A model generated the notes under the pieces. That model was not told where the DNA came from and did not search any database. It saw only the letters and a list, made by a program, of their open reading frames with translations. Shown piece by piece: positions 1 to 14,988 of a DNA stretch of 64,000 nucleotides (the stretch's first letter is position 1; each line of letters begins with the position of its first letter). Origin of the DNA: an uncultured Chloroflexia bacterium (GTDB lineage: Bacteria > Chloroflexota > Anaerolineae > JAAYZQ01); assembly GCA_963701775.1 (NCBI GenBank), contig CAVPBH010000018.1:184568-248567 (forward strand), given 5' to 3'. A program made the position numbers and the translations under genes.

Positions 1-93
1 GACGACCGTCGCCTCCCAGCGGCTCCCGCAGCCCGTCAGGCAAACAAGAAGGGCGACGACCAGCACACTCAGCCTTCGCACCTTGCCAGGCAT
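1..93 (-). CDS. lipoprotein, N-terminal fragment (gene runs off window start)
   Basis: Reverse complement of 1-93 reads MPGKVRRLSVLVVALLVCLTGCGSRWEATVV, a classic signal peptide with an LTGC lipobox. The ATG at 93 is preceded by GGAGGAA 7 nt upstream. It sits immediately downstream of the cytochrome gene on the minus strand. Confidence 0.45.
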   Translation of the reverse strand, partial: MPGKVRRLSVLVVALLVCLTGCGSRWEATVV

Positions 94-96
94 CTG

Positions 97-1014
97 CTAT
101 TCCTCCGACACCAGCTCGATCACGCCGGCCATCCACTGCGCCCGGCCGCGGTTGGGGAGGACGAGGACGACCTGCTGGCCCATCTGGGCCAGCACGGCGC
201 CCCTGGCTTCGACTGCGGTCAGCGTGTGCTCCGCCCCAGAGGCGTCGCGTACCAGCAGGGTGTCGAAGCCGGGATCGGCCACAATACTCTCCAGGCCCGG
301 CCCCTCGATGCGCGAGGCAGTCTTGGCCTTCCGCACCTGACCGTCGACCTCGCTGTGCAGCATGACGTCAGTCTGCTCGATCGTCGCGCTGGTCGTCGGC
401 CCCAGCAGCAGCCGGCCGATCGAGGTGCGGTAGCCATCCAGAGTGAGCGGCCTGTCCGGGCCGACGACGATGATGCGCCACACTCCTTTCAGCCAGGTGG
501 AGACGTGCAGGTTCTCCGCGGCAAACCGCACGCCGTCCACGTGGGGCAACAGAAGCGCGTCGGCAGTCAGGTTGTCCCGCTCGACGGTGATCAAGCCCTC
601 GTCGCGAGAGGCGAGGGTTACGCTCTCGAACTCGGTCACGCCCTGCCCGGCCAGAAAGTCGAGCAGCGCCACGTGGGTGCCGGGCTGGTCGCGGTAGGGC
701 AGGATCTCATTCACGGGGATGTAACCCGGCTCGGGCACGTCACCCTGCAGCAGGATCAGGTCGTCGAAGGGCACGTTGGCCATCTCTGCCGAGCCGTGAT
801 CGTCGTGGCAGGTAGCGCACGTGTGGAACTTGTCCGGTTCGTGGCACTCGACGCAGTCGTTCATCGTCTCGGCCTCTTCGGCCAGCATCGCCCACGGGAA
901 GTTGAACACGGAGCGGGCCGGAGCTGCCACTCTTGCTCCCACCACCACCGCCACCGCCGCGCCACCCACCACCAGCGCCGCCAGGACTGCCAGTATCAAC
1001 CAGGTTCTCCTCAC
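97..1014 (-). CDS. membrane-anchored dihaem c-type cytochrome with two C-terminal ~85-aa beta-rich modules
   Basis: 305-aa ORF with an N-terminal TM helix (WLILAVLAALVVGGAAVAVVV). It has two CxxCH motifs (CVECH, CATCH) followed by two copies of a module also present in the next-but-one genes. The start is GTG with GGAGAGGAGG 7 nt upstream. Confidence 0.6.
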   Translation of the reverse strand: MRRTWLILAVLAALVVGGAAVAVVVGARVAAPARSVFNFPWAMLAEEAETMNDCVECHEPDKFHTCATCHDDHGSAEMANVPFDDLILLQGDVPEPGYIPVNEILPYRDQPGTHVALLDFLAGQGVTEFESVTLASRDEGLITVERDNLTADALLLPHVDGVRFAAENLHVSTWLKGVWRIIVVGPDRPLTLDGYRTSIGRLLLGPTTSATIEQTDVMLHSEVDGQVRKAKTASRIEGPGLESIVADPGFDTLLVRDASGAEHTLTAVEARGAVLAQMGQQVVLVLPNRGRAQWMAGVIELVSEE

Positions 1015-1033
1015 TAATCAGCCTCCTCTCCTC

Positions 1034-1825
1034 TCATCTTGCCCCCAGCCACACCAAACCAGCCACGATCGACAAGAGCAGTGTCCCCAAAGCAACTCCA
1101 TCCAGCCACGTGGCATGCACCTCGCGCAGGAATGTACGCGTCGCATGCTTGCCAAAGCAGCGGCCTTCCATCGACACGGCCAGCGCATCCACCTTGCCCA
1201 ACGCCGAGACCAGCAGCGGCAGGACGAACTGCCGGGCCAGGGTCAAGAACCGGCGCGGGCTCCGCACGTCATAGCGCACGCCGCGCGCCAGTTGGGCGTT
1301 GTAGACAATCTGGCCCTCCTGCTCAAAGGTCGGCACAAGCCGCAGCGCGGTGATGAGCGCGAATCCGTAGCGGTAGGGCATCCCGGCGCGCATGAGCGCG
1401 TAGGCCAGGTCGCTGGGCTCGGTGGTCAGCACAAACAGGTAGCTCAGCAGGATCACGCTGAGGAAGCGGCCGGCGACGTAGACGCCCGCCTCCACCCCAC
1501 CGGCGGTGACGGCCAGCGACCCCACCGTAGCCCATGTGGCCCCTTCGCGCACGAACAGAACCTGGAGCAATCCCAGCAGCAGCGCCGTGCTGACGAACAG
1601 GCGCGCGCCGCGAAGGCGGACCAGCCGCACGCCGGCTATCGGGAACCCAGCCAACAGCAGCATCACCGCCCCCGCCACCGCCCACGGGCTGCGCACCACA
1701 AAGACAAGGACCGTGCCCAGGATCAGCCAGGCCGCCTTGGTAAGCGGATGCAGGCGGTGGAGGAAGGAGTTGCCGGGATGGTAGGCGATGCGTGTGGCCT
1801 GCGGCCCGGTGCGTCTAGCAGACAT
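1034..1825 (-). CDS. ecfT: ECF transporter T component (EcfT/CbiQ family)
   Basis: Polytopic membrane protein with the LHRLHPLTK motif and a C-terminal ARGVRYD signature typical of CbiQ/EcfT. The ATG at 1825 has a GGAAAGAG RBS. The longer ORF-track start at 1900 is probably a spurious extension. Confidence 0.8.
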   Translation of the reverse strand: MSARRTGPQATRIAYHPGNSFLHRLHPLTKAAWLILGTVLVFVVRSPWAVAGAVMLLLAGFPIAGVRLVRLRGARLFVSTALLLGLLQVLFVREGATWATVGSLAVTAGGVEAGVYVAGRFLSVILLSYLFVLTTEPSDLAYALMRAGMPYRYGFALITALRLVPTFEQEGQIVYNAQLARGVRYDVRSPRRFLTLARQFVLPLLVSALGKVDALAVSMEGRCFGKHATRTFLREVHATWLDGVALGTLLLSIVAGLVWLGAR

Positions 1826-1938
1826 AGGCGCTCTTTCCGAGGGCTCGCAGCTGGTCGAACGCCTGGCCGGTGGGGGCGTCGATGGCAATCGTGCCTCCAT
1901 GGAAGAAGAGCAGGCGGCTGGCGTAGCGGCGCGTGACC

Positions 1939-3273
1939 TCAGGCGCGTGGTTGACCATGATCACCGCGCCGCCCCCGCGCAACGTGTTCCCCCAGCAGGC
2001 CGAGCAGGAAAGCAGCGTTGGCGGGGTCCTGGCCGATCAGCACCTCGTCAAGCAGGATCAGGCGCGGGGCGTAGCTCAGCACCGAGAGCAGGTTCAGGCG
2101 GCGCTTCTGGCCGTAGCTGAGGCGATAGGGATGGTCTCCGCGCCGGTCGCCCAGGCCACAGCGGATCAGCAGCTCCCCGACGCGGTCCTGCGTCGCTGCG
2201 GTCAGCTTGCCGAAGTTGCGGGCGGCAAAGGTTGCCTCCTCCCACACGCTGTCGGCGAAAAGCTGGTGATCCGGGTTCTGGAAGACATAGCCCACCTGCC
2301 CGGCCATCTCCGAAACGGGCGTCTGCCGGGTGTCGTGGCCCATCACCTCGACCCGGCCCCCGCTGGGCCGGCGCAGCCCCAGCAAGCAATGCAGGAAGGT
2401 GGTCTTGCCCGAGCCGTTGTCGCCCATGATCGCCACGAACTCGCCGGGCTGCACCTCCAGCGAGAGCCCGTGCAGGACAGGGCGGCCGTTGTAGCCGGCG
2501 TCCAGGTCCTCGACCTGGACGAGGGAGGAAACGCGCGAAGGGACAAAGGGCGAACCGGCACGGGGGCCCTGCTCCTGCTCCCTGTCGCTTGGCGGCATAG
2601 CGCCATCGCGGACGATCCGGCCGTCCTCCATCTCGACCAGGCGCGGGTGGAAGCGCCGCAGGTAGTCCACCTTGTGCTCGATGACAATGACCGTGATGCC
2701 TGCTTTCTCCCGGATATGTTCGATGACGCCGAACACCTCGGCCGTGGCCGTGGGGTCCAGGTTCGAGGTCGGCTCGTCGAAAATGAGCACCTGGGGCTTG
2801 GCTGCCATCATCGCTGCGATGGCGACCTTTTGCTTTTCCCCGCCGGAGAGGGTGGCCAGTGCCCGGTCCTGCAGATGCTCCGCGCCGACGATGCCCAGCG
2901 CCCAGCTCATCCGCGCGCGGATCTCGTCGCGGGGCAGGCAGCGGTTTTCCAGGCCAAAGGCGACCTCGTCGCCCACGGTCAGGGTGCAGAACTGGGCCTC
3001 GGGGTTCTGCTGCACCAGGCCGACGATCTCGGCGGCGTCGTAGATGGGGCTGTTGCGCACATCGATCCCGCCGACGGTGACGCATCCCTCGGCCTGACCG
3101 TCGAACTGCCGGAAGAGATATCCGCCGATGGCCAGCGCCAGCGTGCTCTTGCCACAGCCCGACGGCCCGGTGACGACCAGGAACTCACCCGGCTCGACTT
3201 TCAGAGCCAGGTCGCGCAAGGCATACGTCTCGCTTCCCCGGAAGCGGAAGCTCAGCCCTTCGACGGAAATCAT
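1939..3273 (-). CDS. ecfA: ECF transporter ATPase, fused duplicated EcfA1-EcfA2
   Basis: 444 aa with two ABC ATPase domains. The Walker A motifs are GPSGCGKST and GDNGSGKTT, with LSGGEKQ and LSYGQKRR signatures and Walker B DEPTS/LLDEV. The stop overlaps the start of the next gene. Confidence 0.85.
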   Translation of the reverse strand: MISVEGLSFRFRGSETYALRDLALKVEPGEFLVVTGPSGCGKSTLALAIGGYLFRQFDGQAEGCVTVGGIDVRNSPIYDAAEIVGLVQQNPEAQFCTLTVGDEVAFGLENRCLPRDEIRARMSWALGIVGAEHLQDRALATLSGGEKQKVAIAAMMAAKPQVLIFDEPTSNLDPTATAEVFGVIEHIREKAGITVIVIEHKVDYLRRFHPRLVEMEDGRIVRDGAMPPSDREQEQGPRAGSPFVPSRVSSLVQVEDLDAGYNGRPVLHGLSLEVQPGEFVAIMGDNGSGKTTFLHCLLGLRRPSGGRVEVMGHDTRQTPVSEMAGQVGYVFQNPDHQLFADSVWEEATFAARNFGKLTAATQDRVGELLIRCGLGDRRGDHPYRLSYGQKRRLNLLSVLSYAPRLILLDEVLIGQDPANAAFLLGLLGEHVARGRRGDHGQPRA

Positions 3274-4682
3274 CGGACCTCGATGCGCTCTACCCGGGCG
3301 GCCAAGACCTCGCCGTCCATGCGGGCCAGGGCAAAGGTCACGTCGGCCTCGCCGATCACGGTGAACAAGCGCAGCTCGTCATCAGCCAACACTTCGCTCA
3401 GCGGCAGCGAGAGGAGTCCGGTACTTGTGTAAACCAAGACCGTCTCAGCCGTGCCCCGAGGTTCCATCGCCGCCAACACCTTGCCCAGGGGCACGCCCTG
3501 CAGTTTGCGCGGACCGTCGCCCATGTCGAGGCGGGTGCTGTCCATGTCGAACTGCCAGTCGTCGGGATCGTAGGGTGAAGGCGCATCCAAGGCGCCGCTC
3601 ACCTCCAATGTTGAGGCGCCGACCACGACCAATTCCTGCACACCGCGTACCCAAGCTTTGCTGTTCAGCGCGCCGACGACGTTGTACGAGGCGTCGTCGC
3701 CCTCGCCTTGGGGCGAAAGCAGCAACGCCTCGTTGTCGCGCACTTCATCGAGGCCGATGAAAAAGGCGTAGCCATCGGTGGCGTGCACCAACAGCAGCGT
3801 GGCTGCGGGCTGAGGCTGGGCAGCGGCGAGAAGCTCGCGGACAGGCACACCCTTGTACTGGCCGGTCACCTCGCGCAGCGTGCCTTCCGCCGTGGTCGTG
3901 CCCAGGTCACCGTGCTCGGTAGGATAGTCGTAGGGCGTGGCCACGGCCCCGCCAATGTGGACCGTCGCCGGGCCGCGAAGCGCGCCGCGCAGGTACACCG
4001 CCAGCACCACGGTGAGCAGGCCTGCGACGACTAGGAAGATCGGGTAGGCGCGGCGGTTCATCGGTACTGGCGCCGCATCCTTGACCACGCCGGCGCGGCG
4101 CAGGGCGCTGAGCAGCCCCCGGCTCAGCACCCCGGCAAAGAGCACGCCGGAGAGCAAGGCCACGCCCGCCACCAGCAGCATCGCCCAATAGGCCAGCGTG
4201 TCGGCCGGCACCGAGGCAAACAGCTGAAAGACGAACACATTGGAGGCCGCGGCCAATCCCCCGGCCAGGCAGTAGGCGACCAGCGAGTCCTTGTGGCGGA
4301 AGGGAAAAAAGCCGAGGTCGACCAGCATCCCGGCGACGATGTCCACCAGCACCACCAACAGGCCGTGGGTATTGCCGGTCAGCAGCTCGACGCCACCCTT
4401 GAGCAGGCCGGTGATCGTGCCTGCGCCCTGTTTGCGGGTCAGACCCACGGCCAGGGTCAGCCACAGCACATGCAGTCCGGCCGCCCACTGCGTCGTGCCC
4501 GCGAAACCGAAAACCGACTGGAATACGTCGCCGACGGCGTTGACATAGGTGCTCACCACGCCGCCGAGCGCGGCCAGGGCAGCCATCATCAACAGGTCAC
4601 GGGTGGAGTAATAGGTACGTCGCTGAATCACTTGTACCCCCCGGCGGGCTTGGGCGTGGATCAGGCCATGCTCCACGCCCAA
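3270..4682 (-). CDS. ECF S-component-like membrane protein fused to two extracytoplasmic beta-rich modules
   Basis: The N-terminal ~170 aa has 5-6 TM helices and resembles ECF S components (TTQWAAGLHVLWLTLAVGLT...). The C-terminal ~280 aa holds two copies of the module seen in the 97-1014 and 4764-6446 proteins. The likely true start is the internal Met at ~4589. Confidence 0.55.
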   Translation of the reverse strand: MGVEHGLIHAQARRGVQVIQRRTYYSTRDLLMMAALAALGGVVSTYVNAVGDVFQSVFGFAGTTQWAAGLHVLWLTLAVGLTRKQGAGTITGLLKGGVELLTGNTHGLLVVLVDIVAGMLVDLGFFPFRHKDSLVAYCLAGGLAAASNVFVFQLFASVPADTLAYWAMLLVAGVALLSGVLFAGVLSRGLLSALRRAGVVKDAAPVPMNRRAYPIFLVVAGLLTVVLAVYLRGALRGPATVHIGGAVATPYDYPTEHGDLGTTTAEGTLREVTGQYKGVPVRELLAAAQPQPAATLLLVHATDGYAFFIGLDEVRDNEALLLSPQGEGDDASYNVVGALNSKAWVRGVQELVVVGASTLEVSGALDAPSPYDPDDWQFDMDSTRLDMGDGPRKLQGVPLGKVLAAMEPRGTAETVLVYTSTGLLSLPLSEVLADDELRLFTVIGEADVTFALARMDGEVLAARVERIEVR

Positions 4683-4763
4683 GCCTTCTGCGCCGCAGCC
4701 CGGGAGCTCGCCGGCCTCGATCCCGGCGATCGGGCCAGCCGGCGCTTCCTTGGTTGCGAGTCG

Positions 4764-6446
4764 CTACTTGACCTGGATCTCGACTACACCCTTCACCTGC
4801 ACGCTGCCGGCGAAGCCGGGCAGGACGGTGCTGAAGCCGCCCTTGCTGCGGAACGAGACGATGCAGTCGGCACATGCCAGTACGTCCGCCAGCGGGACCT
4901 CGGCCGTATAGCCGTCGTCGGCGACAAAGACCAGCGTCGTGGCATCGGCGGCGGGCGCGGCCATCTCCAGCAGCTTACTCATGGAGACGCCGGTGTAGGT
5001 CTCGGTCTCGCCCGACTTGTTGGTCGACTGCGCTTCCATGGTCTCCATGGCCAGCACATCCGCCTCGAGCCAGCCGATCTCCTGGCCCACCTTGCCCGTG
5101 ATCTTGAGCGCGGCGCCCTCGGGGATGCCCCCGGCGGGCGCCTCGGCGGGGGTGCCGCCGGAGATCTGGAGCTCGACGAGGCCCTTGACCTGGAGCTTGC
5201 CGCCCTGGCTCGGCAGGACAGAGCGAAGGCCGCCCTCGGGATCGAAGGCGACGATGCAGTCGGCGCAGGCTGCTACGTCGGCCACGGGAATCTCGGCGGT
5301 GAAACCGTCACTCGCCACCAGGACGAGGGTGGCGTCCGCGGGAGTGTTGGCCGCCTCGAGCAGGATGCTCATGAGCACGCCGGTGTAGGTGGTCGTCGTG
5401 CCGTCCTTGCCGGTGTAGGGCACGTCGATCGTGCCGAGGGCCTTCAGCTCCTCCTCGGTCCAGGACAGCTCCTGCGCAGGTCCGGTGAGCTTGAGCACGG
5501 GCGCAGCGGGTGCCGGGGTGGTGCTGGCCGGTGCGCCGGGGTAGAAGAGGGACTGGCCGAATTCGTCGACGCCAAAGTCGCCGATCATGGCCTGCACATC
5601 GTCCGACAGGATCCACTCGACAAACTGCATAGCGAGATCATACTCGACGCCCGGGTGCGTGTCTGGGTTGACGGCCATGACGCCGTAGGGGTTCAGGAGC
5701 TTCTTGTCGGGGTTCTCGGTCAGGGTCGCGCCGCCGACCACGATGGTCAGGTCGGGCAGCTTGTCCTCCATCGCCAGCCAGGTTCCGCGGTCGCTGAGCG
5801 TGTAGGCCAGGCTCTCCTGCGAGAAGAGGAGCGTGTCTCCCATGCCTTGGCCGAGCGACTTGTACCAGGCCATCTCTGCCGTGGGGGTGATCGCCGCCGA
5901 GGCCCACAGGGAGATCTCCTTGTTGTTGGTGCCCGACTTGTCGCCACGGCTGGCAAAGGTCGCCTCGGCCGCCGCGATGGCCGTCAGGGCGTCCACCGAG
6001 CTGGTCATCCCGGCTACCGCGGCCGGGTCAGCCGTGGGGCCAACGAGGACAAAGTCGTTATACATGACGTCAAAACGCTCCTTGGCGTTGCCGTCGGCGA
6101 CGAACTTGTCCTCCGATTTGCGGCTGTGGACGAGCAGCACGTCGGCGTCGCCATTGGCGCCCATCTCTAGCGCCTGGCCGGTGCCCACGGCGATGTAGTC
6201 CAAGTTGCAGTCGCAGACCTCCTCAAACTGAGGCACGAGGTAGTCCAGCAGGCCGGTATCGGCCGTGCTGGTGGTGGTCGCCAGGATGAGATCGGCTTCC
6301 TCGGCTGTCGTTGGCTCGGCAGTCGGCTCGGCGACAACCGCCGTCGGCTCGATCACTTCTGGCTCCTCTGTGGCGGCCCCGCAGCCGGCAATCAGGCCGG
6401 CGAACAGGGCCAGGACGATACACAACGCAAACAGTTTCTTGGACAT
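4764..6446 (-). CDS. tupA: TupA-type tungstate/molybdate ABC substrate-binding lipoprotein with two extra C-terminal modules
   Basis: Signal peptide plus lipobox (LIAGC). The PBP-like domain carries the TupA-characteristic ATTTSTADTGLLD motif. Two tandem ~110-aa modules follow, also visible as a ~370-bp direct repeat at the DNA level. AGGAGGAAG RBS. Confidence 0.75.
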   Translation of the reverse strand: MSKKLFALCIVLALFAGLIAGCGAATEEPEVIEPTAVVAEPTAEPTTAEEADLILATTTSTADTGLLDYLVPQFEEVCDCNLDYIAVGTGQALEMGANGDADVLLVHSRKSEDKFVADGNAKERFDVMYNDFVLVGPTADPAAVAGMTSSVDALTAIAAAEATFASRGDKSGTNNKEISLWASAAITPTAEMAWYKSLGQGMGDTLLFSQESLAYTLSDRGTWLAMEDKLPDLTIVVGGATLTENPDKKLLNPYGVMAVNPDTHPGVEYDLAMQFVEWILSDDVQAMIGDFGVDEFGQSLFYPGAPASTTPAPAAPVLKLTGPAQELSWTEEELKALGTIDVPYTGKDGTTTTYTGVLMSILLEAANTPADATLVLVASDGFTAEIPVADVAACADCIVAFDPEGGLRSVLPSQGGKLQVKGLVELQISGGTPAEAPAGGIPEGAALKITGKVGQEIGWLEADVLAMETMEAQSTNKSGETETYTGVSMSKLLEMAAPAADATTLVFVADDGYTAEVPLADVLACADCIVSFRSKGGFSTVLPGFAGSVQVKGVVEIQVK

Positions 6447-6488
6447 TTCTTCCTCCTATTGGTTGGACATCTTCCGGATTCGGTCCGG

Positions 6489-7226
6489 CTAATACACCAT
6501 CTCTCCACGTACAAAGGCGGCCGTGCGCGGATCGCGCGGCGAATCGAAGAAGGTCTGGACATCCTCCGCCTCGGCGACCTGGCCGTCGAGCATGAGCACG
6601 ACGCGGTGGGCCAGGCGCCGCGCCTGGAAGACGTTGTGGGTGACCATGACCATGGTCGTGCCCTGCTCGGTGTTGAGCGTCCGCACGATATCCTCGATCA
6701 GCCCCACGTTGTAGGGGTCGAGGTTCGCCGTGGGCTCGTCCAGCAGGAGGACGTCCGGCCGCAGGACCATCGCCCGCGCCAGCGCGACGCGCTGCGCCTC
6801 GCCCCCGGAGAGGGTGCGCGCCCGCTGGCCGGGGATGCCGCCGAGGCCGACCTTTTCCAGCGTGGCCTGGACCAGGGCGCGGGTCTCGGCCCTGCGCTCG
6901 CCGCGCAACTGCAGCCCGTAGAGCACGTTGGCCCAGACGCTGCGGTTCAGAAGCAGTGGTCGCTGGAAGACCATTGTCACGCGCCGGCGCTCGGCGACCG
7001 GCGCCCCCTGGCCCGGGCCATACGCGCGGCCGAGAAAGCGGATGGTGCCGGACGAGGGCGATTCGAGGAAGTTGAGGAGACGCAGGAGAGTGGACTTGCC
7101 CGCGCCGCTGGGGCCGACCAGGCCGAGGATCTCGCCGCGCCGCACCTCCAGGGCGTCCACCCGCAGGACAGCCCGGCTGCCGTATGTCTTGGTCACTTGC
7201 TGCAGCTCGTAGACCGCATCGCTCAT
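6489..7226 (-). CDS. tupC: ABC transporter ATP-binding protein (TupC-like)
   Basis: Walker A GPSGAGKST, signature LSGGEAQR and Walker B LLLDEPT. Its position in the operon matches TupC. Confidence 0.8.
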   Translation of the reverse strand: MSDAVYELQQVTKTYGSRAVLRVDALEVRRGEILGLVGPSGAGKSTLLRLLNFLESPSSGTIRFLGRAYGPGQGAPVAERRRVTMVFQRPLLLNRSVWANVLYGLQLRGERRAETRALVQATLEKVGLGGIPGQRARTLSGGEAQRVALARAMVLRPDVLLLDEPTANLDPYNVGLIEDIVRTLNTEQGTTMVMVTHNVFQARRLAHRVVLMLDGQVAEAEDVQTFFDSPRDPRTAAFVRGEMVY

Positions 7227-7936
7227 TCGTCGAAGGTCCTTCCCTGCAGCCGCAGCATGATCACGTTGGTCAGGAACGAGATGGAGAGCAGGATGGCACC
7301 GAGAGCGATGGCCAAGTCAAACTCGCCCTGGCGCGTGCCGAGGACGATGGCGGTGGTGAGAACTCGGGTCGAGTGCTGGATGTTGCCGCCGACGAGCATC
7401 ACGGCACCGACTTCGGAGATGATGCTGCCAAAGCCGGCGATGATCGACACGATCACCCCGATGCGCGCTTCGGAGAGGATAGCCGCGGCCACCTGCCAGC
7501 GCGTCGCACCGAGAGCTTGCACCTGCTGGCGGAGAGCCGGATCGACGCCCATGACGGCGGCCATGGTGAAGCCGGCGACCAGCGGGAAGGCGATGATCGT
7601 CTGGGCAAAGATCATGGCCCCGGGCGTAAAGAGGTTGGGAATCCACGACCACCCCAGGCTGCCCAGCGGCCCGCTGCGGGAGAGGAGGAGGTAGACGAAG
7701 AGGCCGACCACGACCGGCGGGAAGCCCATGCCGGTGTAGAGGAGGGCGATGACGAGCCGCCGGCCCATGAAGCGGCTCAGCCCCATGATGACGCCCAGCG
7801 GGATGCCAATGACCGTGCTGAAGAGCAGCGCGATGCCCGACACGCGAAGGGACATCACGACGATCTCCAGCAGGTCCGGGTCCAGGTGGGCGATCAGGCG
7901 GATGGCCTCGACGAGGCCCTTCCAGATTTCCTCTAT
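7223..7936 (-). CDS. tupB: ABC transporter permease (TupB-like, ModB family)
   Basis: Binding-protein-dependent permease with EAA-like loop and GATRWQV. Conserved N-terminal sequence extends upstream of the first ATG at 7858. An AGGAG RBS precedes an in-frame ATA at 7936, with no ATG, GTG or TTG available there. The start is uncertain: 7858 or 7861 if a canonical start codon is required. Confidence 0.7.
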   Translation of the reverse strand: MEEIWKGLVEAIRLIAHLDPDLLEIVVMSLRVSGIALLFSTVIGIPLGVIMGLSRFMGRRLVIALLYTGMGFPPVVVGLFVYLLLSRSGPLGSLGWSWIPNLFTPGAMIFAQTIIAFPLVAGFTMAAVMGVDPALRQQVQALGATRWQVAAAILSEARIGVIVSIIAGFGSIISEVGAVMLVGGNIQHSTRVLTTAIVLGTRQGEFDLAIALGAILLSISFLTNVIMLRLQGRTFDE

Positions 7937-8432
7937 GGTGGTCTCCTACCCAGTCAAGCTCTTCCGTGTGCCGATCGGGCGTGTTCCATCTTCCAGGCAA
8001 CAAAAAAGCGCCTCGAAAGCGAGGCGCTGTGGCTGCCGGGATAGGCACGGATCTCCAGAAGAGTCCGTGCCTGCGGCACATGTCAGCGCATCTCCTTTCC
8101 AAGGATGGGAGGCGTGGCCGTTTCCAGCCAGGCCCTACCGGCCTCGCTCCATAGGATCCCCCGGGTCCTTCCCTGGTCCCGGAAGGAGCGCCCGTAGGCA
8201 ACGAGGCTCGGAGATGCTGCGATTTGGTTGTTCAGGAACTGTGAAAAATGTAACACGCCAGAGCGGGGATGTCAAGCGCGGCGCGGCGATTGGAGCGTGG
8301 GCCGGCTGGCACTGTGCGCACAGGTACTATGGCTGAGGATCGCTTTTTTTGGGGGAAACAATTACCGATTGAGTCACTGTGGGGATGGAGGGGATATGGA
8401 CACGGGCGATTGAATCACTGTTGATGTCTCCT

Positions 8433-8461
8433 TTGGTTTTCCGCCGGATGCAGGGTACAAT
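8433..8461 (+). promoter_or_regulatory. sigma70-like promoter TTGGTT-17-TACAAT upstream of moaA
   Basis: The hexamers and 17-nt spacing are read directly from the sequence. The predicted transcription start leaves a leader of about 115 nt before the moaA ATG. Confidence 0.4.
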
Positions 8462-8584
8462 ACGATGCTGGTTGGTGACGATAGATGCGAGATCAGGGCG
8501 CTTTCGGTGTGGGACTCGAACCGCCGTGCTATGCCGCGCAGGCACAGGCCTGGCGGGCAATGCCCCCAGGAAGAGCAGGGTTGA

Positions 8585-9814
8585 TTGCCCTTCCAGGATG
8601 ACTTTGGCCGCGCCATCAATTACCTGCGCGTTTCGGTCACCGACCGCTGCAACCTGCGCTGCGTCTACTGCATGCCGCCCGGCGGCGTGGACAAACAGCC
8701 GCACGAACATGTCCTCAGCTACGAGGAGATGGCCCTCGTCATCCGCGCCGCAGCCGAGACCGGCATCCGGAAGGTCCGGCTGACGGGCGGGGAGCCCCTC
8801 GTGCGCCTCGGCCTGGCCGAGTTCGTGCGGATGATCGCCGCCATCCCCGGCATCGACGACCTTTCCATGACGACGAACGCCACGCTCCTGGCCGGGCATG
8901 CCCGGGCGCTGGCCGACGCCGGCCTGAACCGCGTCAACATCAGCCTGGATACGCTCCAACCCGAACGCTTTGCCAGCATGACACGCCGGGGCAAGATCGA
9001 GGATGTCTGGGCAGGCGTCGAGGCGGCCCGGGCGGCGGGCCTCACCCCCATCAAGTTCAACGCCGTCGTGATCCGCGGCCTGAACGACGACGAGGTACCC
9101 AGCCTGGCCGAGAAGAGCTTGACCGACGGCTGGCACATGCGCTTCATCGAGTGGATGCCGATTGGCGACACAGCCGGCTGGGCGGCCGGCGGAGCGGTGC
9201 CGGTCGCCGAGATTCGCGCGACGATCGAGCAGCGCCTTGGTCCCCTGCAACCGGCCCCCGGCCCCAGGGGGAACGGCCCGGCGCGCTACTTCCGGCTGCC
9301 CGGAGCCACGGGCACCATCGGCTTCATCGGGGCGCTGAGCGAGCACTTTTGCGCGTCGTGCAACCGCCTCCGGCTCACCGCCGACGGACGCCTGCGGCCC
9401 TGTCTTCTGGCCGAGCAGGAGGTCGACCTGCGGCCCACGCTGCGGGCCGGCGGCGGCCTGGAAGCGGTCCGGCAGCTCCTGGCGCAGGCCATCCAGTCCA
9501 AGCCCATGTGCCACCACCTGGACGAGGCACGGGTGCCCCAGGGCCGCACGATGTCCCAGATCGGGGCTAGGGGCCGAGACGGCCCCACGAGGGGTATACT
9601 ATGCAGCTTTCCCACGTCGATGAATCGGGCCGGGCACGCATGGTGGACGTTGGCGCCAAGGCCGATACGGAGCGGGTGGCGATTGCCCAGGCGCGCGTCA
9701 CCCTGCTTCCCGCCACGCTGGCCCTCATCCGCACCAACGCCGCGGCCAAGGGCGACGTCCTGGCCGTGGCCCAAATCGCCGGCATCCAGGCCGCCAAGCG
9801 GACGCACGAGCTGA
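8585..9814 (+). CDS. moaA: GTP 3',8-cyclase MoaA (radical SAM); the C-terminus appears frameshifted
   Basis: Carries the [10 protein letters not shown] radical-SAM motif and is full-length MoaA-like up to ...GRTMSQIG. The ORF then runs on for ~80 aa, overlapping moaC. One extra G in the atcggggctag run (~9568) would give the canonical ...MSQIGG* ending at ~9574. Confidence 0.85.
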
Positions 9815-10086
9815 TCCCGCTCTGCCACCCTCTCCTGCTCACCCACATCTCGGTCGAGCTGGCGCCGGAGCAGTCCGGCGACGAGGCGTGGATCGACCTC
9901 AAGGCGACCGTCCGCACCACGGGCAAGACGGGCGTCGAGATGGAGGCGCTGACGGCCGTCAGCATCGCGGCCCTGACCGTCTACGACATGTGCAAGGCCG
10001 TGGACCGCGGCATGTGCATCACCGGCGTGCGCCTCGTCCACAAGAGCGGGGGCAAGAGCGGGGAATGGAACCGGGAGGAAGCATGA
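9601..10086 (+). CDS. moaC: cyclic pyranopterin monophosphate synthase MoaC
   Basis: 161 aa with MoaC family sequence throughout ([13 protein letters not shown]...HKSGGKSG). Confidence 0.9.
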
Positions 10087-10535
10087 GCCAGGAGGGACGA
10101 GTGCTCGCCGTGTGCACCAGCCAGAAGAAGGGCGTTCCGAAGCGGGACATCGGCCGGGCCGAGCTGCGCGCCGACTGGGGTATCGTGGGCGACGCCCATG
10201 CGGCCGACTGGCACCGCCAGGTCAGCCTGCTCGCCTGGGAAAGTATCGAGAAGATGCGCGCGCTGGGGCTCAACGTGCGCGCCGGCAGCTTTGCCGAGAA
10301 TATCACCACCACCGGCCTCTGCCTGGTCGATCTGCCCATCGGGACGCGGCTGCGGATCGGCACGGCGCTGGTGCAGGTGACGCAGATCGGCAAGGTCTGC
10401 CACGACAAGTGCGCCATCTACTACCAGGCAGGCGACTGCGTCATGCCCCGCGAGGGCATCTTTGTCGCCGTCCTCGAGGGGGGGATGGTGCAAGCCGGCG
10501 ACGCCGTGCAGGTGGTGCCGGTGACGGCCGATTGA
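10083..10535 (+). CDS. MOSC domain-containing protein
   Basis: ~150 aa beginning [13 protein letters not shown], with the [13 protein letters not shown] signature. The ATG at 10083 overlaps the moaC stop. The longer ORF-track version starting at 9888 is a spurious extension. Confidence 0.8.
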
Positions 10536-10549
10536 AGTAGGCCGCGAGA

Positions 10550-11266
10550 ATGAGCCGGACGGCGAGCTACTACGACCTGCGCGATGCGCTGGCCCTGCCG
10601 GGCTGCCCGGTGTGCCGCTTGGCTGCGCGCGACGCCGAGCGCTATCTCGACGGCCTGTTGTGGGAGCACGTCACGGATCCCGGCGTCCGGGCCAAGGTCC
10701 GCCGCGCGCAGGGCTTTTGCCGCGACCATGCGCGGCTTCTCGACCGGGCCGGCGCGGCGCTGGGCGTGGCGATCCTGATGCAAGACGTGCTGCGCGCCGT
10801 GCTGGAAACCCTGGAAGGCGCGCACTTCCAGGCCCCGCCAGCGCTCTCGCTTCGCCGCGCACAGGAAACGCTCGACCCCGGCCAACCCTCGGCCGCAACG
10901 GCCGAGCTGGTGGCACGCCTGGCGCCCGGAGAACCCTGCCCGGCCTGCGCCCGCGCGGGCGAGATGGAGACGGTCTACCTGGACACGCTGGTAGAGCAGT
11001 TGATGGGCGAAGAGGGACTGCTGGGCGCGTACGGGGTATCCGGCGGTCTGTGCCTTCCCCATCTCCGGCTGGCACTGGTCCGGCTGCGCGAGCCGGCCGT
11101 CTTTGAGGCACTGGTGAGTGCACAGCGCGACATCTGGGGACGCCTAGAGGCCGACCTGCGCGAGCAGATCCGGAAGAACGACTACCGGTTCCGCGACGAG
11201 CCGTGGGGCGACGAAAGCAATGCCTGGCTGCGGGGGCTGGCTGCCGTGAGCGGAGGGCTGCCCTAG
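10550..11266 (+). CDS. hypothetical protein with paired CPxC...C-x2-H motifs
   Basis: 238-aa ORF in the Moco operon orientation. It has two CPVC/CPAC motifs with downstream Cys/His (CRDH, CLPH), suggesting a metal-binding protein. No family could be assigned from sequence alone. Confidence 0.5.
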   Translation: MSRTASYYDLRDALALPGCPVCRLAARDAERYLDGLLWEHVTDPGVRAKVRRAQGFCRDHARLLDRAGAALGVAILMQDVLRAVLETLEGAHFQAPPALSLRRAQETLDPGQPSAATAELVARLAPGEPCPACARAGEMETVYLDTLVEQLMGEEGLLGAYGVSGGLCLPHLRLALVRLREPAVFEALVSAQRDIWGRLEADLREQIRKNDYRFRDEPWGDESNAWLRGLAAVSGGLP

Positions 11267-13950
11267 ATCGTCTTCAGCCGTGGGTTCAGAATCCGGTCCA
11301 GAGCCGATGCCAGGAGGGCAAAGCCGAGGCCTGTCAGGATGCAGAGTGCCAGCGGCTCGATGAGCGCCACGTAGTTCCCCTGCCAGACCTCGGTGCGCAG
11401 CGAGGTGTAGATCAGGTTACCCCAGGTGGGCAGGGTGCCGCTGACGCCAAAGATCGCGAGCGTCGCCTCCAGAAAGACAAAGCCAGGCACGAGGATCGCC
11501 AACTGAGGGACGATCATGGGCGCGATGCGCGGGATCATGTAGCGCAGGATGATGCGCCCGCTGCCCGCGCCATAGGCTTGGGCGGCCTCGATGTAGGAGG
11601 CCCCCCGGACCTGCAGGAAGGCCGCCCGATAGGCTTTGACCGGCGTGCCCAGCGCGCTCACGAGGACCACGCTGCCCATCACCAGCCAGAGGCTGAAGCC
11701 AAAGAGACGCTGGAGGATCACGGCGATGGCCAGGACCGGGAGGACCATCGTGGCCTCCGTCAGCCGCTGGATCAGGCCGTCGAGCCAGCCGCCGCGCCAG
11801 GCGCCCGCGGCGGCCAACCCCAAGGAGATGAGCGTAGTCACGATGCCCCCGCCCAGGCCGATGACCAGGGCGGCGGGGGCTCCCCAAAGCAGGGCAGACC
11901 AGAGGTCACCCCGCTGGTCGTCCGTCCCTGCCCACCCCCAGACGCGCCCGACCAGGATGAGCTGCGCGTCCAGATCCGATTCCGTCTCAAACCCCAGCGC
12001 GTCCAGCTCGAGGGTGTAGGTCCCACGCAGGCTCTGCCCCTTCTCGTCTAGGGGACCGGTGAAGAGCGCGGTGTAGGGGGCCAGCCCGCCCTGGCCGCCG
12101 CCGCTGCCACTGGTGCGGAACTGGCCGGCGAGGGCGTGTGACGCCAGGTAGCTGGGGGGGATATTCTCCGAGAAATCGTATGCCTCGTCGGCCACGACGC
12201 CGCGGGCCGTGAGGGGAACCTCCTGCCCTCCAGGCATGATCCACCGGGGCGTGACAAAGACCTTGGACGATCCGCGCGCAAAGAAGCGCAGGACCATCTC
12301 CTGGGGGATCCCCTGGTAGGGATAATCGAACGTGAAGGTCAGGCGCAGGTGGCGGGCCGCGCCTTCCGCCGGCAGCACTTCTTTGACCGCCTGCCCGCTG
12401 CGCGAGTCCAGCGCGATGGTGGAGGGCAGGTCGACGGAGCGGAACCAGTTGACCCACACCGGCAACGCGTTCTGGGGAGGTGGGACCTCGCCCACCGCCA
12501 CGGGCGCGCCTTCGATCGTGGCAGGGCCGCGCGGGATCGCGACCAGGGCATAGACGGACATGGCCAGCAGACCGGCGATGATGGCCAAGCCGGCGACGGC
12601 GGAGGGATCGCGCAGCAGCTCGCGGAGGAAAGCTGCCAGGCCGGCGGCGCTTCGCCGAAAAGAGTGCCAACGCTCCGCCAGCCCGGCCCTCAGATCGCCG
12701 GCACTCGGGCGCCGGAGAAGGCTCCGCCGCTTTTTCCAGGCAGGCCGCTCCGGCGAGAGCGCGCCTTGCCTCGCCCGCCGCCGGGCGGTCACACGCATGG
12801 TCTGGCCGTTCCCACCCAGGCGGATGCGCGGATCCACCATGGTGTAGATTAGGTCCAGGAGAATGACCAGGAAGCCGAGCAGGTAAGCAAAGATGACGAC
12901 CGTGCCCACGGCGACCACGATGTCGTAGGTCCACAGCGCCTGGACGTAGGCCTGGCCGATGCCCGGCCAATTGAAGAAGAACTCGAGCGCCGTCGTCATC
13001 TGCCAAAAGCCGAGGAGCGTCAAAGAGAATGAGGTAATGACGTAGGGCAGCGTCGGGCGGAGGAGGTAGCGCCGCTCCACCATGCGGGGCGCCATGCCCT
13101 GCGCCACGGCCAGCTCGACGTACTCCTCGGTGGAAAAGACCAGGAAGAACGCCCGCCAGGCGGACACGCACTGGAGGAATAGGGTGAGCAGGATGGCCGT
13201 CACCGGCAGGATCATGTGCTTGGCGATCTGGAGCGCGGCCTGTCCCCTGGTCTCGGGGGGTACCGTATCGAATAGACCGCCGAAGGGCAGCAAGTGCAGG
13301 CCAACGCCAAAGACAAAGACCAGGATGATGCCGTGCATCCAGCTCGGGATGGAGGCGAGGGGGGTCAGCCAGCCGACGATCCGGTCAGGCCATTTGCCGG
13401 GCCGGCGGGCCAGGGCGAGGGCCAGCGGAATGCCAAGCAAGAAGACGACCAGGTCGGCCAGACCTACCAGGAGCAGGGTGAGGGGCAGCCGGGAGGCAAG
13501 GATGTGCGTCACGCGAAAGCGGGTGTAGGAGGGGCCCATCAGGGCGGAGAGGCTCGTATAGGTGCTCACGTCTTCGCTGTCCTTGGCGAGCGCCTCACCC
13601 CACCGGAAAGCCAAGGCGTTGCCGAGCCAGTGCAAGTGACGCGCCAGGTAGGGTTGATGCAGGCCGGCGGCCTCCTCCATGGCCTGCTTGCGGATCTCGA
13701 CTTCCTCTGCGGAGATATCGCCCCACAACCCTGCCGCGACGCGATACTCGGCACCGTACCAGATATCGTTCGCGACGACTGTGTCGATCGCCCCGCTGCG
13801 ATTCGCCAGCACGATGGTGACAAAGACTCCGAGCACGATGGTCAGCCCGATGGTGACCAGCCTCACCAGCAGGTATCTTGCCAGCTTGAGGACTCCCCGC
13901 CCGGCCGAGGAGCCCCTTGCTCCCTCTCCGGACTCGGCTCGGCTCGTCAT
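11263..13950 (-). CDS. fused ABC permease (OppB/DppB-like N-terminal TMD plus OppC/DppC-like C-terminal TMD) with a ~400-aa extracytoplasmic insert
   Basis: Two binding-protein-dependent permease domains lie in one 895-aa protein. The ATG at 13950 has GGAGG 7 nt upstream. The ORF-track start at 14331 adds 127 spurious residues. No cognate ATPase or substrate-binding gene is nearby. Confidence 0.7.
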   Translation of the reverse strand: MTSRAESGEGARGSSAGRGVLKLARYLLVRLVTIGLTIVLGVFVTIVLANRSGAIDTVVANDIWYGAEYRVAAGLWGDISAEEVEIRKQAMEEAAGLHQPYLARHLHWLGNALAFRWGEALAKDSEDVSTYTSLSALMGPSYTRFRVTHILASRLPLTLLLVGLADLVVFLLGIPLALALARRPGKWPDRIVGWLTPLASIPSWMHGIILVFVFGVGLHLLPFGGLFDTVPPETRGQAALQIAKHMILPVTAILLTLFLQCVSAWRAFFLVFSTEEYVELAVAQGMAPRMVERRYLLRPTLPYVITSFSLTLLGFWQMTTALEFFFNWPGIGQAYVQALWTYDIVVAVGTVVIFAYLLGFLVILLDLIYTMVDPRIRLGGNGQTMRVTARRRARQGALSPERPAWKKRRSLLRRPSAGDLRAGLAERWHSFRRSAAGLAAFLRELLRDPSAVAGLAIIAGLLAMSVYALVAIPRGPATIEGAPVAVGEVPPPQNALPVWVNWFRSVDLPSTIALDSRSGQAVKEVLPAEGAARHLRLTFTFDYPYQGIPQEMVLRFFARGSSKVFVTPRWIMPGGQEVPLTARGVVADEAYDFSENIPPSYLASHALAGQFRTSGSGGGQGGLAPYTALFTGPLDEKGQSLRGTYTLELDALGFETESDLDAQLILVGRVWGWAGTDDQRGDLWSALLWGAPAALVIGLGGGIVTTLISLGLAAAGAWRGGWLDGLIQRLTEATMVLPVLAIAVILQRLFGFSLWLVMGSVVLVSALGTPVKAYRAAFLQVRGASYIEAAQAYGAGSGRIILRYMIPRIAPMIVPQLAILVPGFVFLEATLAIFGVSGTLPTWGNLIYTSLRTEVWQGNYVALIEPLALCILTGLGFALLASALDRILNPRLKTI

Positions 13951-14095
13951 TCCTTCGCCTCCGATGCTGTGCGTCTGCTGTGAAACGCCGCGGGGGCGCC
14001 GGGCGTTCAGGGACAACCGGGCGCAGGCGCGCATGCCTCGATCTTGCCACGCGGGCGCACGTATGGCAAAATGGGAAGGACCAAAGGAGGTTGTC

Positions 14096-14988
14096 ATGAA
14101 CAGGAATAAGAGGAGCGATTCGGCGTGGCCCAACTCGAAGGAGGCGCCGTCCTGGCGGCCGGGCAGCACGCCACAGCGGACGCCGCCGCGCCGCTCCTCG
14201 CCCGGCTGCGGAAGACGGCTGCGTGCCTGGTGGGACGATTCCGGCTCCATGGCCGGGCTGATCGCGCTCGGCGTGTCGATGCCGGTGAGTATCGTCCTGT
14301 GCATCGTGCTCTGGATCGCCCACAGCCGCACGAACTGGCTGGTGGGGCTGACCCTGACGCTCTTTGGGCTGCCAATTCTCGTCTACGGGCTGATGCTGAC
14401 GCGGCGCCGCAACCGGCAGGTCGCAGGGGAGGGGGGCTGCATGATGCTGGGGGGCATCCTGCTCGGAGTGGCCGCCCTCGTCTTTGCCTTCTTCGTCTTC
14501 TTCAAGCCGGAGCACCGCATCGCTGAGATGCTCATGCTCAGCTTCCAGCGGGGCGTCAAGAACAAGGACTTTACAGTCGAGCTCGCCGTGGAGCCGGCGG
14601 AATACCGGGTGGGGGAGCGCGGCGCCGTGACGGCGACATCACCAACCGGAGCGACGTCACGGTCGAGTTCTCGGAGCTGGTGCTGGGGATGCCGAAGGAC
14701 TTTTTCGACGGCTTTGTGGTGGACTTTCCGACGACGCCGCCCCACCTGGAGTACAACGAGCAGTCGATCGGCGGGGACACGATCGTGCTCTCCGGCGAGG
14801 GGACGCGCATCGCGCCCGGGGAGACTTTTACGGCGCGGGTGGAGATCGTGGCCAACCTGCCGGGCAACTACAGCGGCAAGTTCACCTTCGTGCCGGTGTT
14901 CTCCGAGGAGTCGCAGGCGCTCGGGGCGGTGCAGGTGAAGGAGAAGCTGACGGTGACGATCCTGCCGGAGCGCCGGGACAGGCCGTAA
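14096..14988 (+). CDS. membrane protein, frameshifted at ~14630
   Basis: The ATG at 14096 has an AAAGGAGG RBS. The N-terminal half has 3-4 TM helices in one frame up to ...GERGAVT. The product then continues coherently only in the +1 frame (DITNRSDVTVEFSELVLGMPKDFFDGF...) to the stop at 14988. Confidence 0.5.

Follow-up and report, generated by a model that had tools for sequence, protein, structure and literature searches.

An operon with a molybdenum/tungsten-cofactor riboswitch in an Anaerolineae bacterium combines tungstate and energy-coupling factor transporters with a repeated cysteine-less module of the sulfite oxidase fold

The known ligands of the sulfite oxidase (SUOX) fold are all pterins: the molybdenum cofactor (Moco) in the enzymes and neopterin or monapterin in PruR (PMC11194511). 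In PruR, Tyr104 and Trp160 sandwich the pterin, Asn102 is hydrogen-bonded to it, and the cleft takes small pterins, not Moco (PMC11194511). Two described transporters are also relevant here: YkoEDC, a group I energy-coupling factor (ECF) system for thiamine/hydroxymethylpyrimidine (HMP), and the TupABC importers that are controlled by tungsten-cofactor (Tuco) riboswitches in Eubacterium, Geobacter and Desulfovibrio. We describe an operon from an uncultured Chloroflexia bacterium (Anaerolineae in the GTDB classification) that has relatives of all of these. It lies at the start of a stretch of 64,000 nucleotides, hereafter the window (assembly GCA_963701775.1, contig CAVPBH010000018.1, positions 184,568 to 248,567 of the forward strand). 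Its parts all come from known families (the RF01055 riboswitch, a group I ECF transporter, TupABC and the SUOX fold), and it is their assembly that is new. The operon belongs to a molybdenum/tungsten (Mo/W)-cofactor regulon, and hints at an undescribed extracellular capture route for a cofactor-related compound. Our best explanation, which we hold tentatively and at somewhat less than an even chance, is that the operon serves to supply the Mo/W cofactor and is turned off by it, with SUOX-fold modules that would capture a Moco-related ligand and an ECF transporter that would take up a pterin-type compound.

A preliminary description of this DNA had reported seven co-directional minus-strand genes at 97-7936 with ECF, Tup and cytochrome components, and moaA, moaC and a MOSC gene as divergent neighbours. 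A check of the open reading frames (ORFs) and profile searches confirmed the genes, their coordinates and their families, and the three neighbours do lie on the plus strand. However, the seven genes cannot be the complete unit, as a riboswitch leader lies upstream of them and an eighth gene runs from 93. From 5' to 3', the predicted operon is tupB, tupC, tupA, ecfS, a fused ecfA, ecfT, the gene for an anchored dihaem cytochrome c and an eighth, lipoprotein gene; a P3-less Moco riboswitch and a terminator precede these eight or more co-transcribed genes.

The Moco/Tuco aptamer (8076-8225, minus strand) was identified with the RF01055 covariance model as a variant without the P3 hairpin. The match (65.7 bits against a gathering score of 36, E=2.6e-14) covers the full model (1-135), with the P3 columns deleted. 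Upstream of the riboswitch, on the same strand, a sigma-70-like promoter (8247-8275; TTGACA, a 17-nt spacer and TACATT with TG) is a consensus match only, with one such site found against 0.2 expected. Between the aptamer and tupB there is an intrinsic terminator (7997-8028, minus strand; a 9-bp GC-rich stem and a T tract), which is likely to act as the expression platform of a transcriptional OFF switch. The leader as a whole (8225-7997) lies directly upstream of tupB, and its fold has a z value of -3.9. A Moco riboswitch was also found directly upstream of ecfS, or of tupB or the first transporter gene where that leads, in all the relatives' loci scanned (13/13). The link with Mo/W metabolism made in the preliminary description gains much strength from this control by a Moco/Tuco riboswitch. 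The lack of P3 in such RNAs correlates with tungsten-cofactor metabolism (PMC2408646), and in Eubacterium limosum the P3-less variants are regarded as Tuco riboswitches (PMC11725836); the absence of P3 from the predicted aptamer accordingly correlates with a tungsten cofactor, but falls short of proof. In S. wolfei, P3-less RNAs precede 'sulphite oxidase' genes according to the riboswitch study of 2008 (PMC2408646), and the products of these genes may be the same kind of protein as the module proteins described below. Moco riboswitches in tandem were seen in two of the related loci, upstream of a ModA-module fusion in L007 (1352-1663) and as a second pair, on the opposite strand, in L026 (3635-3981).

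The first three genes, all on the minus strand, encode the components of a predicted tungstate/molybdate ATP-binding cassette (ABC) importer. The permease gene tupB (7223-7936; first canonical start at 7858) was recognised by NF038017 at 249 bits, and tupC (6489-7226) was assigned by profile searches to an ABC ATPase of 245 aa without a TOBE domain. The lipoprotein gene tupA (4764-6446; lipobox LIAGC) encodes a binding domain (5517-6446) followed by module 1 (5160-5495) and module 2 (4767-5108). This binding domain matches the solved tungstate-binding protein of Geobacter, 3LR1 (E=2.9e-68), and in the alignment with 3LR1 the anion motif TTTS, which we take to be a signature of the TupA family, reads 'LATTTSTADTGLL'. 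The TupA domain with TTTS and the TupB-type permease are shared with the TupABC systems under Tuco riboswitches, and control by a P3-less riboswitch is shared with that of E. limosum (PMC11725836). However, the TupA of the window bears two C-terminal SUOX-fold modules, its tupBCA genes are co-transcribed with an ECF system, and both proteins score below the NCBIfam equivalog cut-offs (TupA 224 bits, with a cut-off of 400 bits; TupB 138 bits with the equivalog hidden Markov model (HMM)). The conserved N-terminus of TupB (IEEIWKGLVEAIRLI) begins with an ATA codon (7936-7934) preceded by a GGAGA Shine-Dalgarno sequence, with no in-frame ATG, GTG or TTG. An isoleucine codon (ATA/ATC; ATA in L011) occupies the same position in two related loci, L011 and L012, with a stop three codons upstream in L012, so this looks like a conserved non-canonical start codon.

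The next three minus-strand genes provide a complete group I ECF set, with a PF09819 S component, a CbiQ-family T component and a fused double ATPase encoded together. In ecfS (3270-4682; probable start GTG, giving a 453-aa form), the membrane core (about 3978-4631) is followed by module 1 (3624-3962) and module 2 (3273-3608). The fused A1A2 ATPase gene ecfA (1815-3273; 1939-3273 as assembled) was recognised by the ECF_ATPase_1/2 profiles, and ecfT (1034-1900; probable start ATG at 1825) by profile searches. The S core matches the solved YkoE structure (5EDL) over 176 residues (27-202, E=4.7e-10). The six-helix YkoE-like core of the S component is followed by a seventh, strongly hydrophobic segment, TM7 (aa 213-231, about 3990-4046). 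ECF S components have an N-in/C-in topology, with both termini in the cytoplasm; a seventh transmembrane (TM) helix would therefore place both S modules outside the cell. The system resembles YkoEDC in its S-A1A2-T gene order, fused double ATPase, PF09819 assignment and S core homology. It differs from it in the seventh helix and in about 230 probably extracytoplasmic residues forming the two modules, in the Moco riboswitch that replaces the thiamine pyrophosphate (TPP) riboswitch, and in its linkage with a cytochrome, a phosphodiesterase and moaA. Neither an ECF system under a Moco riboswitch nor an S component bearing external domains turned up in our full-text literature searches.

The preliminary description had further claimed that TupA, the S component and the cytochrome each carry two copies of one module. 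The two TupA modules are 56% identical (E=2e-40), module 1 of the S component matches both of them (E about 1e-6), and the two S modules are related with an hhalign probability of 95%. The cytochrome copies were undetectable from the window sequence alone (1-2 bits). However, profile-profile comparison of 17 diverse cytochrome-family members with a non-redundant module alignment of 84 sequences related both blocks to the module family (block 1: 95.6% probability, P=1.3e-8; block 2: 95.9%, P=5e-9) and to each other (95.6%, P about 1e-8). An independent module HMM gave co-linear matches of up to 16.6 bits in diverse cytochrome relatives, against a maximum of 3.8 bits in 360 shuffles. We therefore conclude that all three proteins carry two module copies, and the module E-values and shuffles rule out a chance repeat. 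The domain is longer than the ~85 aa first described, about 110-115 aa with a conserved core of 70-80 aa.

Pfam PF00174 (Oxidored_molyb) matches the TupA modules partially (positions 57-158 of 169, E=6.6e-11), and an AlphaFold2 (AF2) model of TupA module 2, from a mixed-paralogue alignment, had a mean confidence (pLDDT) of 95.8, with Foldseek agreeing on the SUOX fold. The module is thus the Moco-binding fold of the SUOX family, cut to its core. The resemblance to SUOX and YedY noted in the preliminary description holds at the family level; its assignment to the C-terminal dimerisation/beta domain of sulfite oxidase was rejected, as the module corresponds to a minimal form of the Moco-binding domain itself. 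PF00174 was never reached in Pfam scans of the 17 cytochrome relatives, for which profile-profile comparison alone worked, and a phmmer search of S module 1 against the PDB gave chance hits only. In the HMM alignment, the module corresponds to SorA residues about 67-222, with a shortened Cys hairpin. R55 and Y236 of the SorA oxyanion/sulfite pocket (named from PDB titles) seem to lie outside this span, if the chain index equals the residue numbering. The Mo-ligating cysteine is absent: none of the six window modules has a Cys before the xGV motif, and their sole Cys residues are a CxxC pair later in the TupA modules.

The modules therefore share with the SUOX-family Moco domains (SorA, YedY/MsrP, SoxC and sulfite oxidase) the PF00174 match and the association with a haem partner that is a theme of this family, but they lack the Mo-ligating Cys and the dimerisation domain, amount to about two thirds of the domain, and occur in tandem on non-enzymes. 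The modules might nonetheless hold Moco without a cysteine and form, with the haems, an extracytoplasmic oxidoreductase, a degenerate sulfite-dehydrogenase-like enzyme. A haem with a SUOX domain is a classical architecture (SorAB, animal sulfite oxidase and MsrPQ), and some larger paralogues in relatives keep the hairpin Cys (L007_324). However, in addition to the missing cysteine, the domain is cut to 114 aa with a cleft shortened as in PruR, which cannot accommodate Moco (PMC11194511), a Tat (twin-arginine translocation) signal is lacking along with the dimerisation domain, and an enzymatic role leaves the fusion to transporter subunits unexplained. A catalytic SUOX enzyme was thus rejected on account of the absent Cys and truncated cleft, and we consider this whole reading very improbable.

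Of the described members of the fold, PruR of Agrobacterium, Vibrio and Klebsiella (7KOS, 7KOM, 7KP2 and 7RKB) is likewise a small, secreted, truncated SUOX fold without the cysteine. The module motif DGY aligns with N-D-Y of PruR, so that the PruR stacking tyrosine corresponds to the Tyr of DGY. In module 1 of the S component, both DGY and NSKAWVRGV are invariant in 120 homologues, and the Trp of NSKAWVRGV, about ten residues from the module C-terminus, would match PruR Trp160, judging by position. The tyrosine is kept in TupA module 2 and S module 1, replaced with Phe in TupA module 1, and absent from S module 2 and the cytochrome modules. Judged by position, S module 1 and the two cytochrome modules retain the tryptophan, for which the TupA modules have Gln; Asn102 is replaced with Asp. 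The modules are also smaller than PruR (114 aa vs about 135-150) and lack its Pro-Trp motif at the former Cys position, where the hairpin of the TupA modules reads STNK. PruR has DcpA as its partner, a cyclic di-GMP enzyme, whereas the modules of the window are fused to transporters, a cytochrome and a phosphodiesterase under a Moco riboswitch, and no GGDEF/EAL gene was found in the locus.

The cytochrome gene (97-1014, minus strand) encodes a predicted membrane-anchored dihaem cytochrome c of 305 aa that belongs to no Pfam family. An N-terminal TM helix (aa about 5-27) is followed by the haem motifs C54xxCH and C66xxCH (aa 54-73, about 796-855), and then by the divergent module 1 (aa 84-186, 457-765) and module 2 (aa 189-305, 100-450), both delimited by profile-profile comparison. 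Four histidines around the two CxxCH motifs (H58, H64, H70 and H73) are invariant in 48 close homologues, suggesting low-potential haems with bis-His ligation. The family is small, with 59 representatives at E<=0.001 among 1.84 billion representative proteins searched, and its constant part is the pair of modules, the haems being dispensable in distant members. One member has CX4CH. An AF2 model of the whole cytochrome from a shallow alignment was unusable (pLDDT 49). We infer the extracytoplasmic location of the modules of the operon from the TupA lipobox, the TM anchors and TM7.

The eighth gene (1-93, minus strand; ATG at 93) is cut by the window edge, and its first 31 codons (MPGKVRRLSVLVVALLVCLTGCGSRWEATVV) match the N-terminus of the lipoprotein that comes next after the cytochrome in relatives. 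In the 20 relatives' loci with contig sequence beyond the cytochrome, the next gene encodes such a phosphodiesterase-like lipoprotein. It consists of one module and an NPP/PhnA-like domain of the alkaline phosphatase superfamily, with a Thr nucleophile and intact metal motifs. With it, every extracytoplasmic protein of the unit bears Cys-less domains of the minimal SUOX fold. Locus L011 was used as a proxy for the region to the left of the window.

A genome scan with one genome per species, based on alignment A1 (the diverse alignment A2 was too variable), yielded 22 related loci, all from metagenome-assembled genomes of Anaerolineae/Chloroflexota. Homologues of the window proteins likewise point to an uncultured member of the Anaerolineae as the source of the window. 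Wherever the contig allows, these keep a core of the S component with its two modules, A, T, the cytochrome, the phosphodiesterase and a module lipoprotein. L011 has the exact order of the window, continued by the phosphodiesterase lipoprotein, the module lipoprotein and a homologue of the Mo-storage protein. However, only about half of the relatives have tupBCA next to this core: it lies upstream in the window and L011, downstream in, for example, L012, L015, L016, L026, L031 and L032, and is absent within 10 kb in L014, L017, L018, L021, L023 and L029. The 'hybrid' ECF-Tup locus of the preliminary description therefore has an exact counterpart but was overstated, and of the co-occurrence that it proposed to check, the combination of ECF, cytochrome, phosphodiesterase-like lipoprotein and module lipoprotein is invariant, whereas the Tup genes are not.

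In a more distant lineage (L007, L008 and L028), modABC is found together with the cytochrome, phosphodiesterase and stand-alone modules, and its ModA carries a fused module. L007 and L008 also have a second ECF system beside moaA, with an unfused S component and, next to it, a single module as a separate membrane-anchored protein; in L007 (15646-19948), this paralogous system reads A1A2-T-anchored single module (161 aa)-S (183 aa), directly followed by moaA. The unfused S beside a separate module provides Rosetta-stone support for the partnership between S component and module. Stand-alone module lipoproteins of 150 aa are numerous, and one lies directly upstream of tupA in a tungsten aldehyde oxidoreductase locus. 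The AA_kinase-family gene of these islands (L001 19691-20518; L007 10861-11691; L011 12938-13759) is a homologue of the beta subunit of the Azotobacter Mo-storage protein (E=3.7e-77), and by synteny with L011 such a gene probably lies just to the left of the window. Weak matches to paralogues of ecfA/ecfT were seen downstream in L011, L025, L026 and L031. Larger lipoproteins with two or three full-size PF00174-like domains also occur (L007 3210-4184 and L005 6359-7795); one domain keeps the hairpin Cys (APNCHGTSW), and there is a part match to the 'GEGP diheme protein' model. These larger proteins might still bind Moco.

In our preferred explanation, the modules outside the membrane would be tethered capture domains for a Moco-related ligand, and the unit of ECF transporter, cytochrome, phosphodiesterase and module lipoprotein would import a pterin-type compound. 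Candidate cargoes are molybdopterin, cyclic pyranopterin monophosphate (cPMP) or a cofactor dinucleotide that the phosphodiesterase would have trimmed. With bis-His ligation, the haems may keep a bound redox-labile ligand in a given (reduced) redox state, TupABC would provide the metal, and with enough cofactor transcription would terminate at the leader. A pterin-type ligand is favoured for several reasons: the SUOX fold has only pterins as known ligands; the stacking Tyr and the Trp are both present in S module 1; ECF transporters import vitamins and precursors of cofactors, and the ligand of YkoE is heteroaromatic; a phosphodiesterase makes sense for cPMP or dinucleotide cofactors; and the four invariant histidines suggest low-potential haems suited to a reduced ligand. 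The more specific proposal that the ECF transporter, cytochrome, phosphodiesterase and module lipoprotein form an uptake or salvage system for an extracellular molybdopterin-type compound, with PruR-like modules as capture domains, seems to us possible, if on the whole unlikely.

Several points weigh against the pterin proposal, and they are set out here with the alternatives on which they bear. Moco and molybdopterin are labile outside proteins, and the presence of moaA and moaC beside the operon means that salvage would be optional. The pterin or Moco-related ligand of the modules is deduced from homology, and their capture role is predicted. TupA-type modules are always fused or adjacent to the oxyanion-binding ModA or TupA, carry Gln where PruR has the Trp, and share a conserved CxxC and, in the place formerly taken by Cys or Trp, an invariant polar hairpin (STNK.GET). 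From these features, they appear to fit binding of a metal species at least as well as pterin binding. The modules may thus bind Mo/W species (tungstate, molybdate, or thio- and poly-oxo forms) as antennae that pass metal to TupA and the ECF transporter, the latter being a second metal importer and the cytochrome altering the redox or sulfidation state of the metal species. Fusion or adjacency to TupA and ModA in several lineages, the hairpin that stands where SUOX has the Mo-ligand Cys and PruR its Trp, the CxxC and the Mo-storage protein of the island all agree with such a role, and riboswitch control fits it equally well. However, free-oxyanion binding is known for no SUOX-fold member, R55 and Y236 of SorA seem to be outside the aligned span (with the numbering assumed above) and the hairpin is shortened. 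Moreover, ECF transporters are not known for oxyanions, the S component is YkoE-like rather than CbiM/NikM-like, and the phosphodiesterase would have no role. We regard this main rival as unlikely, though still to be taken seriously. It retains the shared oxyanion-binding function put forward in the preliminary description, which is not what homology suggests, since the known ligands of the fold point to pterins.

Other points concern the cytochrome and the cargo. In the cytochrome family (P0241-P0295), distant members have two, one or no CxxCH motifs (none in P0286 and P0295). In L009 (8001-9494; P0298), a Peripla_BP_2 protein of the siderophore/B12 class has a C-terminal cytochrome-type module, in a locus without Mo/W genes. 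Tuco riboswitches of E. limosum control Fe transporters (PMC11725836). The ECF system might import an unrelated micronutrient that W/Mo enzymes require as well (for example thiamine/HMP or iron) and be merely co-regulated, with the cytochrome acting, for example, as a ferric reductase; the homology of the S core to thiamine-binding YkoE and the fusion of a cytochrome-type module to an iron-siderophore-class binding protein agree with this. Nevertheless, the S component bears SUOX-fold modules of the same family as those of TupA and ModA, the ECF system lies beside moaA in two independent arrangements, and no TPP riboswitch or iron-regulation signal was found in window positions 1-12000, so we hold an unrelated cargo to be improbable. 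We assign a similarly low probability to the possibility that the modules have no small ligand and act as a scaffold, docking tethered proteins into a surface complex (there being no outer membrane) or near the transporters. This would account for the same fold on five functionally different proteins (TupA/ModA, S component, cytochrome, phosphodiesterase and Peripla_BP_2), for the strong divergence of the module types, with few shared invariant residues, and for the Peripla_BP_2 fusion outside a Mo context. However, the canonical ligand-cleft residues are the most conserved within each type, as in the DGY and NSKAWVRGV of S module 1 (120 sequences), and the stand-alone module lipoproteins are abundant and resemble PruR.

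Import of a pterin would be of interest because, according to a review of 2026, the way in which pterins pass through bacterial membranes is not known (PMC13259868). In a riboswitch-regulon survey of 2013, uptake was listed for the coenzymes B12, thiamin, riboflavin, queuosine and folate, and Moco was not among them (PMC3766115). Our full-text literature searches found no bacterial importer for a non-folate pterin or Moco precursor and no cofactor-type importer regulated by a Moco riboswitch, so such a system, if real, may be the first of its kind. The locus is thus a concrete, conserved and riboswitch-backed candidate for pterin import, with parts that can be expressed and tested. If the proposal is correct, it would provide an ECF S component with a built-in extracytoplasmic receptor. 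The locus extends the range of PruR-type SUOX domains without the cysteine, which had been tied to signalling in proteobacteria, to transport in Chloroflexota. The additional helix and the pair of external domains of the S component also have a bearing on the toppling model for ECF transporters. Should W/Mo species be the ligands of the modules, these would be a new class of metal-capture domain, relevant to trace-metal acquisition in anoxic habitats.

Two genes of the region appear to be affected by homopolymer indels. By comparison with L011 and L012, ecfA has one surplus G in a G-run near 1977 (within 1970-1985). As assembled, its frame stops at 1939 and truncates the second ATPase domain ahead of its H-loop; read in the shifted frame, the gene regains the H-loop region and extends to 1815, overlapping the probable ecfT start at 1825. 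The divergent moaA (8585 to about 9570, plus strand; the ORF as assembled runs to 9814) is one G short at about 9565, in its 3' end (9560-9570), with respect to L011. This turns the essential C-terminal '...MSQIGG*' of L011 into '...IGARGRDG...', and the ORF runs 80 codons into moaC. With two such indels in 8 kb, errors of assembly are a better explanation than pseudogenes, and the ecfA frameshift is probably of this kind. Downstream of moaA, on the plus strand, are moaC (9601-10086) and the MOSC gene (10084-10535). Beyond the MOSC gene, the region 10550-14331 contains a DUF6062 gene and, on the opposite strand, a gene for a 1022-aa protein with two BPD_transp_1 permease domains in one chain. 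A 1080-aa STAND-type protein (DUF4062, NACHT and TPR), unrelated to the operon, is encoded at 16416-19658.

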